Source: an uncultured Candidatus Saccharibacteria bacterium (GTDB lineage Bacteria; Patescibacteriota; Saccharimonadia; Saccharimonadales; UBA4665). From it: 64,000 nucleotides of DNA. Made by a program: the position numbers and the translations under genes. The stretch spans positions 26,855 to 90,854 of the forward strand of contig CAYHMQ010000003.1 in the NCBI GenBank assembly GCA_964357905.1. The letters are read 5' to 3'. Below are positions 3,041 to 26,862 of the stretch, in pieces (positions within the stretch are counted from its first letter, which is position 1; every line of letters begins with the position of its first letter). The notes under the pieces were generated by a model. The model made no database searches and had not been told where the DNA came from. It saw only the letters and a list, made by a program, of their open reading frames with translations.

Positions 3041-3453
3041 TACTTGCCTCCCTTCTTGGTGCCGTACTTGCTGCGGCCTTGCTTACGATCTGTAACACCT
3101 TGAAGGTCGAGTGAACCACGTACGATGTGGTAACGCACACCCGGAAGGTCCTTAACGCGGCCGCCGCGTACTAAAACGACAGCGTGCTCTTGAAGGTTGT
3201 GACCTTCGCCACCGATGTAGGCCCAAACTTCGTAGCCATTGCTAAGGCGCACACGGGCAACCTTACGCAGGGCTGAGTTAGGCTTCTTAGGTGTCTTAGT
3301 GGTTACTTTGACACAAACACCACGCTTGAAAGGCGCAGGCTTCTCGTAGTTACGAGTTTTAAGATTATTAGTCACGCGCTGCATAGCTGGTGACTTGCTC
3401 TTAGTCGTTACCTTGGTACGCGGCTTACGCACTAACTGATTGATTGTTGGCAT
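3040..3453 (-). CDS. rpsL: 30S ribosomal protein S12
   Basis: 137-aa ORF starting [12 protein letters not shown], with the KKPNSALRK motif. SD AAGGGAG lies upstream. Confidence 0.98.
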
Positions 3454-3541
3454 TTATTCTCCCTTATCGGACTGCGATCTGCTGCTGTTAACGGCATGCC
3501 TACTGTCAAGCTCGGATCACTTAAGTTATGCAATGGTTGCT

Positions 3542-18851: not shown

Positions 18852-20348
18852 CTAGATCGACGCCTCCCAATCGAAGAACACCGTATCTTCACGGTAGCCG
18901 CCCCTGCCCTGCCCAACATTGTCGAACCGGTCTACAAACTCTATAGACTTCAGGTATTTGGCCATTTTGTAGCCATATTTCTTCTCGCAGCGCAAACGCA
19001 GTGGCGCGCCATACTGCGTCGGCAGTTTTTTGCCATTCATTTCATATGCCAAGATAGTCTGATCATCAAACATATCGCTCAGCCTCAAGCCCGAGTAATA
19101 GTAGGCGCCTTGCGGGTCAACATCGTGACAATGGAACAGCACGTACTTGGCACCCTCCTTGGGCTTACACAACTCAATAATATCGGTCATTTTCACCCCG
19201 CCCCATTCAGCGACAGCTGTCCAACCTTGGATGCAGTTATGCTTGGTAATTTGCTCCTGCTTAGGCATGTTATGTAGATCCTCGAGTGTCAGTTCGACAG
19301 GGTTTTCGACCATACCATGGATCTTAAGCGTCCAGTCCTTGTATCCGCCAGCTTGCAGCCTTTCGTACTCCTCAGTTTTGGGCGGGTAGCCATTGGCACG
19401 AAAAAATGGCGAGATGTCTTCCTTGGCGTACCTCTGTCTGGAGTTCATCCAGCCAAAAAAGAAGCGTACTATCGGCGCGTAAAACTTGGTTAATAGCTTA
19501 CGCAATCTGACCTGGTCGCCAAGCGTGAAGAAGGTAATCCAAACATTGAAGGCCGCGATCAATACGATAATTGCCAAGAACATTGTCAGCGCCAGACCAA
19601 AGTTTACATCCGTACTGCCGACAGTAAACTTCTTAACGCTGTCGTAGAAGTGAACAAGCATAGCCATTGTCACATGAACCAATATGAAGAGCGAGAACAC
19701 GACCATGCCAATAAAGTGTAGACTACGAGCAACTTGTCGCTTGTTGCCAAAAAGCTTCAAAAACCCCGGGAAACGTGCCACCAGCGCCGGAGACATAGCC
19801 AAGCCAGTTATTACCATCGAAGGTGCCAGCACAAACACAACAAACGCATAGGTCAACTGCTGCAGAGCATTGTGCGGATTAGACAGCGTATCAGCCGGCA
19901 GGTTTAGCGTCAGATAGCCGACAAAGACGTCAATTGCCCGCGAGAAAATTCCCCAATCAGTTGGAATTAGCCGCTGCCACTGACCCGAGCTGAACAAATA
20001 ACCAAGGTAAATCATGCCTGTGGTCAGCCAGGCTATAGCGGCCGTAAAATGCCAGTGCCTACCCGAACCTAGATTGTGTGTGCCGCCTGGCAAAGATAAC
20101 GGCCCAGCGTCCTCGGCCTCGTCAAGCGAAGTCCAGAGCCTATCTTTGGGCATTATCTTCTTACCGAAGCGCAGCCAGTGATTATCGTCAGCGGTGTCAT
20201 CTGTCCAATATAGCTTGGGGTGATCATAAAGGATTTGTATACCGCTCCTGATCAAAATAATCAGACAAAATAAATTTATAAGATGAGCGACAACTATCAG
20301 TACAGGGATGCTCGTGCCGTCCATTTTTTGTGACGCCTCCGTATACAT
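18852..20348 (-). CDS. fusion protein: N-terminal cytochrome-b561-like membrane domain and C-terminal sulfite-oxidase/YedY(MsrP)-fold molybdopterin oxidoreductase domain
   Basis: 498 aa with five hydrophobic helices. His residues sit in helices 1 and 2, and twice in helix 4 (HFIGMVVFSLFILVH). The C-terminal domain has KHNCIQGWTAVAEWGG (Cys Mo ligand context) and YGAPLRLRCEKKYGYKMAKYLKSIEF. Confidence 0.75.
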   Translation of the reverse strand: MYTEASQKMDGTSIPVLIVVAHLINLFCLIILIRSGIQILYDHPKLYWTDDTADDNHWLRFGKKIMPKDRLWTSLDEAEDAGPLSLPGGTHNLGSGRHWHFTAAIAWLTTGMIYLGYLFSSGQWQRLIPTDWGIFSRAIDVFVGYLTLNLPADTLSNPHNALQQLTYAFVVFVLAPSMVITGLAMSPALVARFPGFLKLFGNKRQVARSLHFIGMVVFSLFILVHVTMAMLVHFYDSVKKFTVGSTDVNFGLALTMFLAIIVLIAAFNVWITFFTLGDQVRLRKLLTKFYAPIVRFFFGWMNSRQRYAKEDISPFFRANGYPPKTEEYERLQAGGYKDWTLKIHGMVENPVELTLEDLHNMPKQEQITKHNCIQGWTAVAEWGGVKMTDIIELCKPKEGAKYVLFHCHDVDPQGAYYYSGLRLSDMFDDQTILAYEMNGKKLPTQYGAPLRLRCEKKYGYKMAKYLKSIEFVDRFDNVGQGRGGYREDTVFFDWEASI

Positions 20349-21888: not shown

Positions 21889-22347
21889 TCAGTAGCGCAA
21901 GAACTGTACTATTAAGATAATCATGGCTATCAGCCAAGTAACCTCGACGACAGCACCGATTGGGCGTCCGAACCATTGAATGCCGATGGCAAACTTGAAG
22001 TAGCCCTTGGCGCGCCATGATTGGCCGCGTCGAGTTTTGATATATCTATCAATCGACAGCAAATCGGGTGAGGCTGCCACAAAGGCACAAATAGCCGCTA
22101 ACAACCAATAAACGGGCTGCAAAATCGCTAGAGTTAGCACTATGCCAAAGCATATGGCTGCTTCGGCCATGAGATAGCGCTGATAGCCTTTGGTTTTGAG
22201 CAATACCTCGTCGGGCAGCAGGCTCCCGTAATGCGGCAGCGCGTCACAGACGAAGTGCGATGCCAAGGCTGCGGGTAACGCTATCAGTGGCTGCCCAGTT
22301 GCTAGCCCAATCAAAGTCCCAGTTAGGGCATGATTAACAGCGGTCAT
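21889..22347 (-). CDS. small membrane protein, possibly YdjM/DUF457-like metal-dependent hydrolase
   Basis: 152 aa and hydrophobic, with an N-terminal HALTG...HFVCDALPHYG pattern. ATGA overlap with the hisS stop. Confidence 0.45.
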   Translation of the reverse strand: MTAVNHALTGTLIGLATGQPLIALPAALASHFVCDALPHYGSLLPDEVLLKTKGYQRYLMAEAAICFGIVLTLAILQPVYWLLAAICAFVAASPDLLSIDRYIKTRRGQSWRAKGYFKFAIGIQWFGRPIGAVVEVTWLIAMIILIVQFLRY

Positions 22348-23648
22348 GCAATCGACGACTTGATGAGCTTGATCGCGTCAGCCAGAGCGACGGCTTGCTC
22401 CTTGCCAGTCTGGAGATTCTTGAGTGTGTATTGGCCGGTCTTAAGCTCATCCTGACCAATGATCAAGACTTGCTTTAGGCCCTTTTTATCGGCTGACTTG
22501 AACTGATCGCCAAGCTTCTTGCCACTTAGGTCAACAGCCAGATTGAGGCCAGCCGCCCTCAGCTGAGCAATTGGCTTCTGAGCCTGCTCCAGGACATCGC
22601 CTACAATCACCACATAGACATTGGTTTCTGGCTCGAATGGTGGCAGGAGACGATGAAGTTCCAAGAAATTAGCTAGGGTAACATCGCCCCAACCAAAGCC
22701 AACTGTCGGCACGGCTGCAACGCCGAACAAACCGACTAGGCCGTCGTAGCGCCCACCAGCAACCATTGAGCGATTATTGTCAGGGTGAGTGTCGAAGACC
22801 TCGAAGACAATATCGGTGTAGTAATCGAAGCCGCGCATGATGGTGATGTCGAAGACGGCATTCTTGATGCCGTTCTTACTTAACAAGTTAAGTGTAGACT
22901 GTAGCTCCTTAACTGAGTCAAGTGCTTGCAACTCCTTGGGCAGCTTGCCCAGCTGCTTGGTCTCGAGTACGGCGAGTAGCTTCTCGACAACGCCTGTCTC
23001 TCGGGCTTTGGCGCTAATGACTGCATCGACTTTCTTCAAGAAATCACTGCGCTGCATTTTCGACATACGATCAATCAACTTACTGACGTCATGCACCTCG
23101 GCCTTACTAAGACCTAGATATTTTCCCAACACAAAGTCCATGAGCTTGCGACTGTTAAGCCTGATCTGATACATGTTGGGCTTGGCACCAAACTCCTTGA
23201 ACATGGCGTCAACAAGATCGATTATCTCGTATTCTGCTGCGACACCAGCCACACCGAAGATATCGACATTAAGCTGCCAGTGCTCTCTCAGGCGGCCGCG
23301 TTGCGGCCGCTCGTATCGCCACAGATTAGGAATACTGTACCAGCGCAGAGGGTAGGCCAGCTCTTGACGTTTTGCAGCCACCATTCGACTAACCGTCGGT
23401 GTCATCTCTGGCCGGATTACTACCTGACGACCACCACGATCTTCGAAGCTATAAGTCTGCTCGTTGACAATTTCCTCCCCCGTCTTGGCTTGGTAAATAT
23501 CCAAAGCTTCTAGAATCGGCGCATCGTACTCCTCGTAGCCAAAACGCTCTGCTACTGTGCGCCACTTGGCGAACATATACTTCTGCAAGCGCTTATCCTC
23601 CGGGTAGAAGTCGCGTGCTCCCCTGTATGGTTTGGTTGATAGTGCCAT
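22344..23648 (-). CDS. hisS: histidine--tRNA ligase
   Basis: 434 aa with class II motif 2 (WRYERPQRGRLREHWQLNVD) and GGRYDGL. A C-terminal anticodon-binding-type domain is present. Confidence 0.88.
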   Translation of the reverse strand: MALSTKPYRGARDFYPEDKRLQKYMFAKWRTVAERFGYEEYDAPILEALDIYQAKTGEEIVNEQTYSFEDRGGRQVVIRPEMTPTVSRMVAAKRQELAYPLRWYSIPNLWRYERPQRGRLREHWQLNVDIFGVAGVAAEYEIIDLVDAMFKEFGAKPNMYQIRLNSRKLMDFVLGKYLGLSKAEVHDVSKLIDRMSKMQRSDFLKKVDAVISAKARETGVVEKLLAVLETKQLGKLPKELQALDSVKELQSTLNLLSKNGIKNAVFDITIMRGFDYYTDIVFEVFDTHPDNNRSMVAGGRYDGLVGLFGVAAVPTVGFGWGDVTLANFLELHRLLPPFEPETNVYVVIVGDVLEQAQKPIAQLRAAGLNLAVDLSGKKLGDQFKSADKKGLKQVLIIGQDELKTGQYTLKNLQTGKEQAVALADAIKLIKSSIA

Positions 23649-23667: not shown

Positions 23668-24954
23668 TCACTTCTCGTTTAAACGAATGGACACGGCTCT
23701 GACGTGCGCCGCCAGATTTTCGGCATCAGCTAATGTCACGATAGTCGGTGCCAAAGTTCTTAGACCGCTTTTCGTCAACATCTGAAATGTTACTTTTTTA
23801 ACAAAGCTATCGAGTGCCACACCACCGTAGCTGCGAGCCCAGCCATTGGTCGGCAACGTGTGGTTAGTGCCCGAGGCATAGTCACCGGCACTTTCTGGCG
23901 AATAGGCTCCTAGAAAGACTGACCCTGCATTGACGACGCCCTTACTAAAATTCTTTGGATTATTGACATTCAGAATCAGGTGCTCTGGGGCATATACATT
24001 CGCGAACTTCATAGCCGTATTCAGCTTCTCGAAGACAACGCAAAACGAATTCTCCAAAGCCTTCATGGCAATCTCTTGGCGCGGCAGTGCCTTAAGCTGG
24101 ATCTTTAGTTCCGCCTTAACGTCAGTCACCAGCCTAGCACTGTCGGTGACTAAAGCCACTTGGCTGTCAGCACCATGTTCAGCCTGACTTAATAAGTCAG
24201 CGGCCACATAAGCTGGACTGGCACTATTATCAGCAATTACCAGAACTTCAGACGGGCCGGCAGGCATATCAATTGCTACACCAAAGTTTTGGGCGTAAGT
24301 CTTGGCTGCCGTCACGTACTGATTGCCCGGGCCAAAAATCTTATCAACTTTTGGTACAGACTTGGTGCCGACAGCTAGCCCAGCGATCGCCTGAGCACCG
24401 CCAACTGCCACTACACGTGTAGCACCTATTTTACGAATCGCGTAACAGATAGCCGGATCGATTTTTCCATCTCTGTTGGGAGGAGTACAGACGATGATTT
24501 CCTTGCAACCCGCTAATTGTGCGGGCACCCCAAGCATCAAGACGGTTGATACCAAGGCAGCACTGCCGGCTGGAATGTAGAGTCCGACTCGCTCTATGGC
24601 TCGAGACTCTCGCCAGCACATGACACCTCGCTGGATTTGTACAGTTTCACGTTTTCCGTCCAATTGCTGAACTTCGTGGAACTGCCTTATGTTGCGCCAA
24701 GCTTCATCTATGGCACGCTTGAGTTCGGGCGAAACTTGTTTAGATAGCTCGTTAACCATTGTGGAGCTAACTATTAACTTATTGTGAGCTACGCCATCAA
24801 ACTGTTTGGTGTAGTTCGATAACGCCCGATCACCTTCTGATTGGACCGCCGTAAATATCTCATTTACGAGCTTACCCAACGCTGGGGCTGACATCGATGG
24901 TCGGGCACTTATCTTTTGCCACCTATTTGTTGGGGGGTTTTTGTAGAACTTCAT
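23668..24954 (-). CDS. hisD: histidinol dehydrogenase
   Basis: 428 aa containing SQAEHG, YAPEHL and GDYASGTNHTLPT. Confidence 0.93.
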   Translation of the reverse strand: MKFYKNPPTNRWQKISARPSMSAPALGKLVNEIFTAVQSEGDRALSNYTKQFDGVAHNKLIVSSTMVNELSKQVSPELKRAIDEAWRNIRQFHEVQQLDGKRETVQIQRGVMCWRESRAIERVGLYIPAGSAALVSTVLMLGVPAQLAGCKEIIVCTPPNRDGKIDPAICYAIRKIGATRVVAVGGAQAIAGLAVGTKSVPKVDKIFGPGNQYVTAAKTYAQNFGVAIDMPAGPSEVLVIADNSASPAYVAADLLSQAEHGADSQVALVTDSARLVTDVKAELKIQLKALPRQEIAMKALENSFCVVFEKLNTAMKFANVYAPEHLILNVNNPKNFSKGVVNAGSVFLGAYSPESAGDYASGTNHTLPTNGWARSYGGVALDSFVKKVTFQMLTKSGLRTLAPTIVTLADAENLAAHVRAVSIRLNEK

Positions 24955-25571
24955 AGATCACGACCCATCATGATAGCCGGATAAATATCACGTAGCTTAA
25001 AGACTTCTAGCAGGCCGTTCTGTCTAGCGGTTTCGCCAGAGAAAACAATATCAGCACCTATACCGACTCCGCTTAATCCAATTGCAGCTTCGACACTATC
25101 AGATATAGGCATTTCAAGGGGCTGAAATGGCAAATCTTGACCTTGTGCCGCTGCCATCAAAAGCTTCGGTAAGCCCGTTGGTATTGAAGTAGGGTAGCTG
25201 GGATATCGGCCGTCAGTGTTCAGTCGGGCTTCCACAAAAGATACCTTTTGCGGTTCGGCAAGTAGCGAAAACCTATACATTGATTGTCCTATGCTCTGGC
25301 AATCTACTTGTCTCGAGTCAGCATATTCCAGATACACGTCAGTGCCGGCAATACCTATATCTCCCCATTTTTTAGCTAAATATTTTGGTATGTCCCGCCC
25401 TTTTACTAACCAAAACTCTCTACCTTGAGATGTAGCTTTTAGCTCTTCGCCCCTGAATGTCGGGATCTCAATTCCGCTTATTGCCTGAAACTCATTAACG
25501 CATGGTAGATTATCACTACCTTTTGACACTAATATTCGTTCGGCCGAATCCACATTATCTAATATCTTCAT
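24951..25571 (-). CDS. hisG: ATP phosphoribosyltransferase, short form
   Basis: 206 aa containing GRDIPKYLAKKWGDIGIAGTDV and SVEAA...ADIVFSGETARQNGL. Strong SD AAGGAG 6 nt upstream. ATGA overlap with hisD. Confidence 0.8.
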   Translation of the reverse strand: MKILDNVDSAERILVSKGSDNLPCVNEFQAISGIEIPTFRGEELKATSQGREFWLVKGRDIPKYLAKKWGDIGIAGTDVYLEYADSRQVDCQSIGQSMYRFSLLAEPQKVSFVEARLNTDGRYPSYPTSIPTGLPKLLMAAAQGQDLPFQPLEMPISDSVEAAIGLSGVGIGADIVFSGETARQNGLLEVFKLRDIYPAIMMGRDL

Positions 25572-25606
25572 ATGTTTCTCCTTAAATAATTAATTACAAA
25601 TAAATC

Positions 25607-25632
25607 AAAAGCGCCGGAGCGATGTCCGGCGC
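25607..25632 (-). terminator. intrinsic terminator/attenuator in the hisG leader
   Basis: The minus strand reads GCGCCGGA-CATCGC-TCCGGCGC followed by TTTTGATTTATTTG. The stem is 8 bp and all but one pair is GC. It lies 36 nt upstream of the hisG ATG. Confidence 0.65.
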
Positions 25633-25662
25633 AGATATGCTTGATTTAAGGGCAATAGCTAG

Positions 25663-25722
25663 CTAACCGTGACGCTCCGGCTGAATATGTACATGGTGTT
25701 GGTTAGAAAACTGCTTTAACAT
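25663..25722 (-). CDS. putative 19-aa His-rich leader peptide MLKQFSNQHHVHIQPERHG
   Basis: The codons read ATG TTA AAG CAG TTT TCT AAC CAA CAC CAT GTA CAT ATT CAG CCG GAG CGT CAC GGT TAG. It lies between the promoter and the terminator upstream of hisG. Confidence 0.5.
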   Translation of the reverse strand: MLKQFSNQHHVHIQPERHG

Positions 25723-25730
25723 TGCGGATA

Positions 25731-25739
25731 ATTATACCA
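25731..25739 (-). promoter_or_regulatory. extended -10 promoter TGGTATAAT, 8 nt upstream of the leader-peptide ATG
   Basis: Read directly. It lies just after the stop of the upstream gene. Confidence 0.5.
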
Positions 25740-25761
25740 CTTATGTCAATGTATGCAAGTA

Positions 25762-26173: not shown

Positions 26174-26758
26174 TCAAGCCTGGCGCTTCAAGAAACGGAT
26201 AAGGCTCGAGGCACCAAGCGTTAAGCTATACATAATCGCATAGCCATGCCGCAAGGCTGGCAAACGTTTCTCGGCGACGGTCGGTATGACTGTAGCTTCA
26301 TATGGTACGGTTCGGTCATCTGGTGAATATAGCGATAGCATCTTAGCTTTGTCGGCTGCCGATAGCTTGGGTAGGTTGGGTTGCAGAGCATATAACGCAG
26401 TTTTGAAGGCTGGGTTAGCAGCATAGGTCTTGGAACTGACTGTCTCTGGGGCATTGATTTTGGCACAAATATACACCAGTCCGGTGATGTCGTTAGATCG
26501 CTCGACATAAGCATTTAGAACCGCACTGGCGCCGGCGCTGGCGCCCACCAAGGAGACACGGTAGCCTTTAGCGATATATTTATCAATTCGCTCCAGCAAT
26601 CGCTGAAACTTGGACTCGTAAGCCTCTTCGCCAGCCCATGGCATCGGATGACAGTGACCCCTGACTCCATACAAGCGCCACAACCAGGTCGCCAAGCTCT
26701 GGACACGATATGCGTCATCTTGAATTCCAGGGATATAAATGACATGGTGTTGTGACAT
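26174..26758 (-). CDS. alpha/beta-hydrolase-fold protein
   Basis: Contains the nucleophile elbow LVGASAGAS. I chose the ATG at 26758 (MSQHHVIYIPG) because the longer ORF would run into the tRNA. Confidence 0.6.
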   Translation of the reverse strand: MSQHHVIYIPGIQDDAYRVQSLATWLWRLYGVRGHCHPMPWAGEEAYESKFQRLLERIDKYIAKGYRVSLVGASAGASAVLNAYVERSNDITGLVYICAKINAPETVSSKTYAANPAFKTALYALQPNLPKLSAADKAKMLSLYSPDDRTVPYEATVIPTVAEKRLPALRHGYAIMYSLTLGASSLIRFLKRQA

Positions 26759-26776
26759 TGAAATACTGCTTCTGAT

Positions 26777-26862
26777 TGGTGCGGATGAGAGGACTTGAAC
26801 CTCCACGCCCTAGGGGCACTAGTTCCTAAGACTAGCGTGTCTACCAATTCCACCACATCCGC
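26777..26862 (-). tRNA. tRNA-Leu (anticodon UAG), CCA encoded
   Basis: 86 nt: GCGGATG acceptor stem, anticodon stem CTAGT/ACTAG, loop CTTAGGA, long variable arm, TTCAAGT T-loop, CATCCGC-A-CCA. Confidence 0.93.

Follow-up and report, generated by a model that had tools for sequence, protein, structure and literature searches.

A conserved histidine-codon leader ahead of hisS operons in Saccharibacteria, probably a leaderless ribosome-mediated attenuator

The window, by which is meant the whole stretch of 64,000 nucleotides that was analysed, carries on its minus strand a short leader in front of a HisG-like gene, hisD and hisS. This leader is very probably a conserved histidine-starvation switch, i.e., a ribosome-mediated attenuator which would sense charged tRNA-His and which has hisS as its constant member. 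Judged from sequence, it is a new family within a known kind of regulator, in a phylum with none known before. A wider, joint reading has about even chances of being right: the leader would be the first amino-acid-sensing cis-element described from the candidate phyla radiation (CPR), a Saccharibacteria-wide leaderless His attenuator of hisS and of salvage or remnant genes, fused in one clade to a TrpR-like gene. A preliminary description of this DNA had proposed ribosome-mediated attenuation of the operon; the conservation of the leader, the covariation of both terminator and antiterminator, and the folding of ribosome-masked leaders back this proposal. The -10 box, the ORF, the His codons, GCCGGAGCG, the terminator and the Shine-Dalgarno sequence that it had listed are all confirmed on the minus strand, and so are the coordinates given there. 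The features are the following (positions are those of the window).

25753..25758, minus strand: -35-like hexamer TTGCAT, weak and below the consensus scan, 16 nt before the -10 box
25731..25739, minus strand: extended -10 box TGgTATAAT (TGGTATAAT), read from sequence
25663..25722, minus strand: leader ORF of 19 codons plus TAG, peptide MLKQFSNQHHVHIQPERHG; ATG at 25722, TAG at 25665-25663
25687..25698, minus strand: sensor codons CAC CAT GTA CAT (His9, His10, Val11, His12)
25698-25696, 25695-25693, 25689-25687 and 25671-25669, minus strand: His codons of the ORF
25701..25706, minus strand: segment 1, CUAACC, 5' strand of the candidate anti-antiterminator P1; partner GGUUAG at 25668-25663
25673..25681, minus strand: segment 2a, GCCGGAGCG, codons 14-17, outer strand of the antiterminator; partner CGCUCCGGC at 25621-25613
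25663..25669, minus strand: segment 2b, CGGUUAG, running from the end of the His18 codon through the Gly codon to the stop
25611..25632, minus strand: intrinsic terminator hairpin; 5' arm 25632-25625, loop 25624-25619, 3' arm 25618-25611
25601..25610, minus strand: U-tract UUUUGAUUUA
24951..25583, minus strand: Shine-Dalgarno sequence AAGGAG (25583-25578) and HisG-like gene, 206 aa
23668..24954, minus strand: hisD, histidinol dehydrogenase (TIGR00069, 510 bits), with a 4-nt overlap with the HisG-like stop
22344..23648, minus strand: hisS, histidine--tRNA ligase with anticodon-binding domain (TIGR00442, 352 bits)
21889..22347, minus strand: 152-aa membrane ORF, with a 4-nt overlap with the hisS stop codon

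From its start to the U-tract the leader measures about 112 nt. The terminator reads GCGCCGGA, a CATCGC loop (CAUCGC in the RNA), TCCGGCGC (RNA UCCGGCGC) and then TTTTGATTTA. With eight pairs, seven of which are G-C, it is the strongest terminator that a consensus scan finds between positions 20000 and 27000; its hairpin has a folding energy of -15.4 kcal/mol (z -4.2), which none of 200 shuffles equals. The complementarity between GCCGGAGCG and CGCTCCGGC (25621-25613) is exact over 9 bp. Segment 2b serves twice: its CGGU pairs with the GCCG of the terminator 5' arm, and its GGUUAG is the 3' strand of P1.

The ATG of the leader ORF in the window lies 8 nt past the -10 box and has no Shine-Dalgarno sequence. 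A similar layout is seen throughout the 26 leaders that stand as separate ORFs, most of which are in the relatives described below. With leader start codons assigned by the position of the -10 box, this box, mostly TGn-extended, precedes the ATG by 6 nt in 17 of the 26 and by 7-12 nt in the nine others; the relatives have TTGACA-like -35 hexamers at 16-18 nt. None of the 26 leaders (0/26) has a Shine-Dalgarno sequence and the structural genes do have one. Because a transcript is expected to start about 7 nt after the -10 box, the AUG would coincide with the 5' end or lie a few nucleotides from it. Thus, the leader ORF appears to be leaderless or to follow a 5' UTR no longer than about 3 nt, with a transcription start that we infer from the promoter sequence.

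Relatives were sought in two ways. The HisG-like protein was used as a query against a set of 5.8 billion proteins, and so was its most divergent match. Homologues are rare: 9-10 were found, 40-53% identical to the window protein, and the leader is directly upstream of the HisG-like gene in all 9-10 loci. Since these loci were retrieved through the protein, the presence of the leader in them is unbiased. The stand-alone leader ORFs of six of the protein-retrieved loci are MLKQLTNQHHSHIQPERHG, MCKTYSNQHHLHLLPERVG, MYKIVLTTQHHLHISPERIG, MSIFNRTHHVHILPERIG, MSVYNRTHHVHMSPERIG and MVYNQLHHLHILPERVG. The preliminary description had named the alignment of upstream regions in related genomes as a check, and here the ORF, the His codons and both pairings are conserved despite the low identity of the HisG-like proteins. 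A profile search of genome contigs with an alignment of three HisG-like proteins gave no match.

The second approach was a scan of one genome per GTDB species with the pattern GCCGGAGCGNNNCGGTTAN{30,55}CGCTYCGGCG, which contains neither His codons, nor the terminator 5' arm, nor any gene. It gave 21 matches, 19 of which are real; the two others, L142 (Acidobacteria) and L143 (Cyanobacteriota), were discarded as chance matches within GC-rich sequence. Eighteen of the 19 are in MAGs labelled Saccharibacteria, Saccharimonadia, Saccharimonadales or Patescibacteria. The remaining one, L152, is labelled Verrucomicrobiia, yet its genes are 68-72% identical to those of the window. All 19 loci have an in-frame ORF which starts with ATG, keeps a constant spacing between its [H]HxH and the pairing segment, and ends in [H/Q/N/Y][H/Q/L]xH-[ILMT]-[LSQ]-P-E-R-x-G-stop. 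Altogether, the whole arrangement is found at 29 further loci, 19 of them via this pattern free of His codons, and its recurrence puts it beyond chance. A covariance model (R1) finds one copy per retrieved locus and a single copy in the 64-kb window. Another pattern, GCCGGAGCGN{35,65}CGCTCCGGC, was tried on metagenomes and rejected: it is its own reverse complement and is common in GC-rich DNA, and none of the 120 loci that it returned (L009-L128) has the leader. As a separate observation, identical copies of the window's HisG-like protein occur in one Patescibacteria MAG and in Hainich groundwater assemblies.

The 26 stand-alone leader ORFs are all in frame, are 17-20 codons long and contain two to four His codons (two in five leaders). 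They were aligned with L133 to give an alignment of 27 sequences (A3). At the first sensor position, 23 of the 27 sequences have a His codon, and at the second, 25 do, with synonymous CAC/CAT variation at both; the third position is invariably CAT (27/27). The preliminary description had counted four His codons in the ORF. The HHxH sensor is indeed conserved, but the fourth His, codon 18, is without conservation. The length of the ORF differs only 5' of the His codons, and by whole codons; the part from the third His codon to the stop is free of indels. CGGUUA is invariant in every protein-retrieved locus, including the clade in which segment 2a is altered; in 19 of the sequences, the search pattern itself fixed GCCGGAGCG, CGGTTA and CGCTYCGGCG.

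The terminator is conserved as a structure. Columns 99-106 of A3 pair with columns 115-122 in 216 of 216 cells, three pairs are altered on both sides, and none of 500 shuffles matches the covariation score. For example, 15 sequences have A-U and 12 have G-C at the pair 105-116. When the register is slid, the pairing drops to 31-48%. The 5' arm of this hairpin is outside the search pattern.

The RNAalifold consensus of A3 is the antiterminator, with two nested helices, and not the terminator. In the outer helix (columns 45-54 with 112-121), GCCGGAGCG and one more base pair with the CGC of the loop and with the 3' arm; in the inner helix (columns 57-61 with 101-105), the sequence xCGGU, in the region of the Gly codon, pairs with the GCCGR of the 5' arm. 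In the window the inner helix joins CGGU (25669-25666) to GCCG (25630-25627), and it can form ahead of the transcription of the 3' arm. The antiterminator thus sequesters both arms of the terminator. The 9-bp pairing had been presented earlier as the structure which excludes the terminator; it is exact in the window, and conserved and covarying in the relatives. As an account of the antiterminator it is right about the pairing but incomplete, since the second helix takes the 5' arm of the terminator too. A comparison of the energies of the alternative folds, suggested at the same time, gives -28.6 kcal/mol (z -2.8) for the antiterminator of about 15 bp in the window, versus the -15.4 kcal/mol of the terminator. 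A direct A:T5 pairing (CCGGAGCG with UGCGCCGG), considered as a classical 2:3 antiterminator, was rejected: it fails in terminators of the GCCGAA and L133 types.

The outer helix is paired in 99.6% of the cells of A3, with three compensatory pairs which all come from L133. In L133, L155 and L156, GCCGGAGCG is changed to GCCAGCCCG and its partner to (C/A)GGGCUGGC; the pairing of GCCAGCCCG with CGGGCUGGC is perfect in L156, has one bulge in L155 and one mismatch in L133. In this clade, column 115 is altered along with both of its alternative partners (A51, A106 and U115 become C, C and G). Such a joint change at columns 51, 106 and 115 is what one would predict if two helices, both functional, exclude each other. 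All the compensatory changes in the antiterminator are from this single clade, and they represent roughly one evolutionary event.

The same three loci have no separate leader ORF. Instead, a full-length TrpR-like gene carries the sensor and the antiterminator strand as its final 11 codons, and its tail reads ...GYAAAL(K/E)(E/Q)(I/V)HH(N/I)HI(L/A/S)PARAG-stop; in L155, the TrpR-like Pfam domain ends at residue 97 of 108, directly before the first His. The codons of the tail are changed (CCG to CCA, GAG to GCC, CGA to CGC/CGA) with P, R and G being kept, and masked folds show that the terminator/antiterminator logic is also kept. In this clade, ribosomes that complete a normal TrpR-like protein would act as the attenuation sensor. 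To our knowledge, sensor codons fused to the end of an ordinary gene have no described precedent; if confirmed, this arrangement widens the design space of attenuators.

The retention of P, R and G at the amino-acid level despite the nucleotide changes is also what a different sensor would call for. The nascent peptide P-x-R-x-G-stop could be a sensor, or a second one, in the manner of TnaC or SecM: slow or arrested termination, perhaps in response to free histidine, would keep segment 2 covered and so impose termination of transcription. The stop codon is inside segment 2, and termination after a C-terminal Gly or Pro is poor in E. coli. However, two RNA pairings constrain the same codons (GGU, like the CG of the Arg codon, falls within the helices), and the change of Glu to Ala follows the RNA covariation; the RNA constraint alone therefore accounts for most of the conservation of the C-terminus. 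Moreover, the His codons would be unexplained if the C-terminus alone mattered. We consider a peptide sensor improbable, and the stalling of ribosomes at the His codons the better reading.

The effect of ribosome position was modelled with ViennaRNA: each leader was folded through the last base of its terminator, the 5' part being masked as it would be by a ribosome. If the A site holds His1 or His2 and the mask extends to +16 from the first P-site nucleotide, the antiterminator is obtained in 27 of 27 sequences, and in three of three of the L133 clade. With the ribosome at the stop codon, the minimum free energy structure is the terminator, again in 27/27 and 3/3. For a ribosome that has the invariant third His codon in its A site, a mask to +16 gives the terminator in 26 of 27 sequences, and a mask to +13 (the 27) or +11 (L133 clade) gives antiterminator pairing. 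In this position, the first base of GCCGGAGCG is exactly at +11, counted from the first P-site nucleotide; the ribosomal helicase is placed at +11 in published work. Which codon is the effective sensor thus depends, in these models, on the extent of the mask (+11 versus +16).

In the absence of a ribosome, the full-length leader folds into the antiterminator in 24 of 27 cases. An untranslated leader which is to be "off" therefore needs a kinetic trap, and P1 (CUAACC:GGUUAG) is a plausible candidate for this anti-antiterminator on the basis of the folds. It is present in the minimum free energy structure of the nascent leader in 22 of 27 sequences, versus 10.3 expected from shuffles; in the window, P1 is no more stable than in shuffles (z +0.71). 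In the relatives, CUAACC is 0-2 codons ahead of the His codons. In L129 the P1 motif is in a different reading frame, which argues for a constraint at the RNA level.

That the free leader favours the antiterminator would also fit a riboswitch which is on by default. One may consider antitermination by RNA alone or with the help of a factor (a riboswitch, a reduced tRNA-His T-box or a HutP-like protein), the ORF with its His codons being either incidental or an RNA recognition element. Terminator and antiterminator fit any such switch, and in Gram-positive bacteria hisS is found under T-boxes (PMC2965389). On the other side, no Rfam family matches even at E up to 10. In Rfam 15, the whole window matches only tRNA-Leu at gathering thresholds, and at E up to 10 the region 25400-25900 matches neither the T-box (RF00230) nor His_leader (RF00514); a "freshwater-2" match of 15.7 bits was set aside as meaningless, as it consists of the hairpin and the Shine-Dalgarno sequence. 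The leader of about 112 nt contains no UGGN bulge and no Stem I. All 26 stand-alone leaders keep the frame, the ATG at the predicted start, the in-frame stop and the CAC/CAT variation, and one clade translates its His codons as part of a real protein, at the C-terminus. An element that is left untranslated would be expected to show none of these features. Such a device is thus very unlikely, less likely still than a peptide sensor.

The operon that follows the leader in the window is made of the HisG-like gene, hisD, hisS and the ORF for a 152-aa membrane protein. The latter is probably the final gene: it is kept 3' of hisS in L133, L145, L151 and L152, and it is followed by tig in the window. 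The first gene had been called hisG. Its product is a divergent HisG-like protein, which passes the cut-off of Pfam PF01634 (39.8 bits, cut-off 25.5) but fails that of the NCBIfam hisG model (39.9, cut-off 75.75); the assignments of hisD and hisS are unambiguous. The preliminary description had also placed the histidyl-tRNA ligase under the same control as the his genes. The relatives bear this out, the presence of hisS being the most conserved aspect across loci: it is found in nearly all the leader operons for which there is enough downstream sequence. The exception is L148, where the leader is followed by a gene for an S66 LD-carboxypeptidase, with no hisS within about 3.5 kb downstream.

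In L136, L140, L147 and L149 the leader is directly before hisS. At other loci, the genes inserted between them code for HisG-like protein and HisD, PRA-CH and PRA-PH, a class I/II aminotransferase together with a HAD phosphatase, an M15 dipeptidase, an AstE/AspA-like deacylase and a SLOG protein. The accessory genes of the leader operons are mostly tied to histidine, namely those for HisG-like protein, HisD, PRA-CH, PRA-PH, the aminotransferase and the HAD phosphatase. Because hisS is constant downstream and the other genes vary, the element, as far as comparative sequence can tell, is primarily an attenuator of hisS, with a variable set of histidine-related genes.

The consensus scan reveals no promoter-like site between the terminator and the HisG-like start codon (there are 35 nt from the U-tract to the Shine-Dalgarno sequence), so the operon must be transcribed through the terminator. 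This speaks against the view that there is no regulation at all, the ORF being an independent HHxH metal-binding small protein, or the hairpin the terminator of the upstream 118-aa gene, and the his operon having its own promoter. Small His-rich peptides exist, and the hairpin, about 130 nt past the upstream stop codon (25762), could serve the 118-aa gene, but the tight spacing between leader and gene is repeated in the relatives, the upstream gene varies among loci while the leader stays with the hisS operon, and a conserved, covarying antiterminator has no use in a plain terminator, which makes this the least credible of the explanations considered.

From the observed anatomy, conservation, covariation and thermodynamic switching under ribosome masks, we infer a mechanism that comprises the transcription start, leaderless translation, ribosome stalling and the response to histidine. 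Transcription would begin at the leader AUG or no more than about 3 nt from it, and the leaderless 5' end would be bound by a ribosome. With ample His-tRNA, this ribosome would reach the UAG, which is inside segment 2 (GCCGGAGCG..CGGUUAG), and cover this segment; the terminator hairpin, 27-35 nt downstream, would then form and transcription would stop at the U-tract. When His-tRNA is scarce, the ribosome would stall with a codon of the HHxH motif in the A site, on segment 1 (CUAACC), and leave segment 2 free. The free CGGU would catch GCCG once the 5' arm of the terminator emerges, and GCCGGAGCG would then zip to the CGC of the loop and to the 3' arm. The antiterminator would block termination, and the HisG-like gene, hisD and hisS would be transcribed.

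Regulation is almost unexplored in Patescibacteria and Saccharibacteria, which have tiny genomes, depend on their hosts for amino acids and are hard to culture. As obligate epibionts, they are mostly unable to make amino acids. If the mechanism proposed above is correct, these bacteria monitor the charging of tRNA-His and adjust the synthetase and histidine-acquisition genes to it, and leaderless translation works in Saccharibacteria. The genes inserted between leader and hisS (coding for HisG-like protein, HisD, HisI/E, aminotransferase, HAD phosphatase and several peptidases) would then be candidate histidine-supply genes. The element is short and sharply bounded, which makes it amenable to in vitro tests, and it might be used as a marker or reporter of histidine limitation in co-cultures of epibionts and hosts. 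Searches of the full-text literature, with subscription journals partly covered, turned up no paper that deals with leader peptides or attenuation in Saccharibacteria or Patescibacteria, or with leaderless regulation in these bacteria.

Among the known systems, the his operons of enterobacteria are controlled by hisL attenuation, and hisL of E. coli has seven consecutive His codons. The element of the window resembles hisL in that His codons lie in a leader ORF and that an intrinsic terminator is mutually exclusive with an antiterminator which would be set by the position of the ribosome, with read-through expected when His-tRNA is short. It has no homology to hisL in sequence or structure, as there is no match to RF00514. 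It also differs in that its family has two to four His codons instead of seven and appears to be leaderless instead of being led by a Shine-Dalgarno sequence, in that the antiterminator takes both arms of the terminator, in that the constant target would be hisS rather than a biosynthetic operon, and in its host (Patescibacteria/Saccharibacteria).

Naville and Gautheret (2010, PMC2965389) predicted His leader peptides before a hisS paralogue and before hisZ in bacilli, and leaders with a stretch of His codons are described in Firmicutes (PMC2965389). Similarly to the element of the window, these are His-codon attenuators before a gene of the histidyl-tRNA synthetase family, a likeness which is based on their descriptions. 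They belong to another phylum, and in the present family the target would be the main, apparently the only, hisS, often accompanied by remnants of the his pathway.

The ilvBNC, trp and leuA attenuators of Corynebacterium glutamicum (PMC11857589, PMC3890552) have leaderless leader peptides, as is proposed here, and a scheme of three hairpins (anti-antiterminator, antiterminator and terminator) is likewise proposed for these actinobacterial systems. They respond to other amino acids, their sequences are unrelated and their phylum is different; in addition, the anti-antiterminator of the present family is weakly supported. Finally, the T-boxes of hisS in Firmicutes have the role that is proposed for the present element, i.e., to raise the synthesis of HisRS by a terminator/antiterminator switch when tRNA-His is uncharged. 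The T-box reads uncharged tRNA directly, over about 200 nt, with a Stem I and a T-box bulge which are all absent here, whereas the element of the window would read the charging of tRNA-His indirectly, via the speed of the ribosome.

The position of the His sensor codons, the conserved [H]HxH of the leader ORF, differs in the clade formed by loci L133, L155 and L156. In these loci, which come from other genomes or assemblies, a full-length TrpR-like (PF01371) gene supplies both the sensor codons and the antiterminator strand as its final 11 codons, HH[NI]HI[LAS]PARAG-stop, in place of a separate leader ORF. The Pfam domain of the L155 protein ends at residue 97 of 108. This arrangement is seen at the following positions:
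L133, 477-839, TrpR-like gene
L155, 4593-4919, TrpR-like gene
L156, 1-63, TrpR-like gene

The promoter block of the leader, TTGCAAgtaTTGACAtaagtRgTATAAT, is near-identical throughout the clade of the window, despite a divergence of about 50% between the coding sequences. It occupies the following position:
25731-25758 of the window, promoter block, with a counterpart in L001, L002, L145, L151 and L152
It includes a perfect TTGACA located just 7 nt from the -10 box, a possible operator or second register of the promoter.

Shortly after the leader ORF, CCUUAAAU (window 25644-25651) is complementary to AUUUAAGG (25579-25586), a segment that includes part of the HisG-like gene's Shine-Dalgarno sequence. 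A computed MFE fold contains this pairing, but a comparison with L002 shows that it is not conserved in that locus, and it is therefore probably incidental.

One tRNA gene of the window overlaps predicted ORFs:
26777-26862, minus strand, tRNA-Leu (anticodon UAG)
The mechanically called ORF 26515-26856 and the 5' end of ORF 26174-26806 both overlap it, and these ORFs are likely spurious or mis-started.

Downstream of hisS lies a membrane ORF:
21889-22347 of the window, 152-aa membrane ORF, 4-nt overlap with the hisS stop codon
This ORF has no family match, and it is kept directly after hisS in L133, L145, L151 and L152 (53-58% identity), with tig next. The L152 contig (DATHNF010000059.1) is labeled Verrucomicrobiia, yet its leader is of the Saccharibacteria type; its hisS, 152-aa ORF and tig share 53-72% identity with their counterparts in the window, and the contig is probably mis-binned.

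Beside hisS, the window has just two genes of the pathway: hisD (23668-24954) and the gene of a divergent HisG-like protein (24951-25571), whose score does not reach the NCBIfam threshold for hisG. L151 and L152 each carry the HisG-like gene as two separate ORFs (3386-3541 and 3561-4034 in L151, 4135-4281 and 4316-4753 in L152), which reflects either a frameshift, pseudogenization or an error in assembly. In the relatives L131, L146 and L151, other parts of the histidine pathway are present, namely PRA-CH, PRA-PH, an aminotransferase and a HAD phosphatase. Together with the genes of the window, they suggest a pathway that is incomplete or has been repurposed, and the organism is expected to be auxotrophic.

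Some leader-controlled operons also include peptidase/deacylase genes (M15 dipeptidase, S66 LD-carboxypeptidase, AstE/AspA-like) or a SLOG/LOG-like gene, mostly placed between the leader and hisS:
L150, 3878-4576, accessory gene
L148, 2996-3961, accessory gene
L153, 4709-5437, accessory gene
L134, 5811-6347, accessory gene
The products of these genes may have histidine-scavenging functions.
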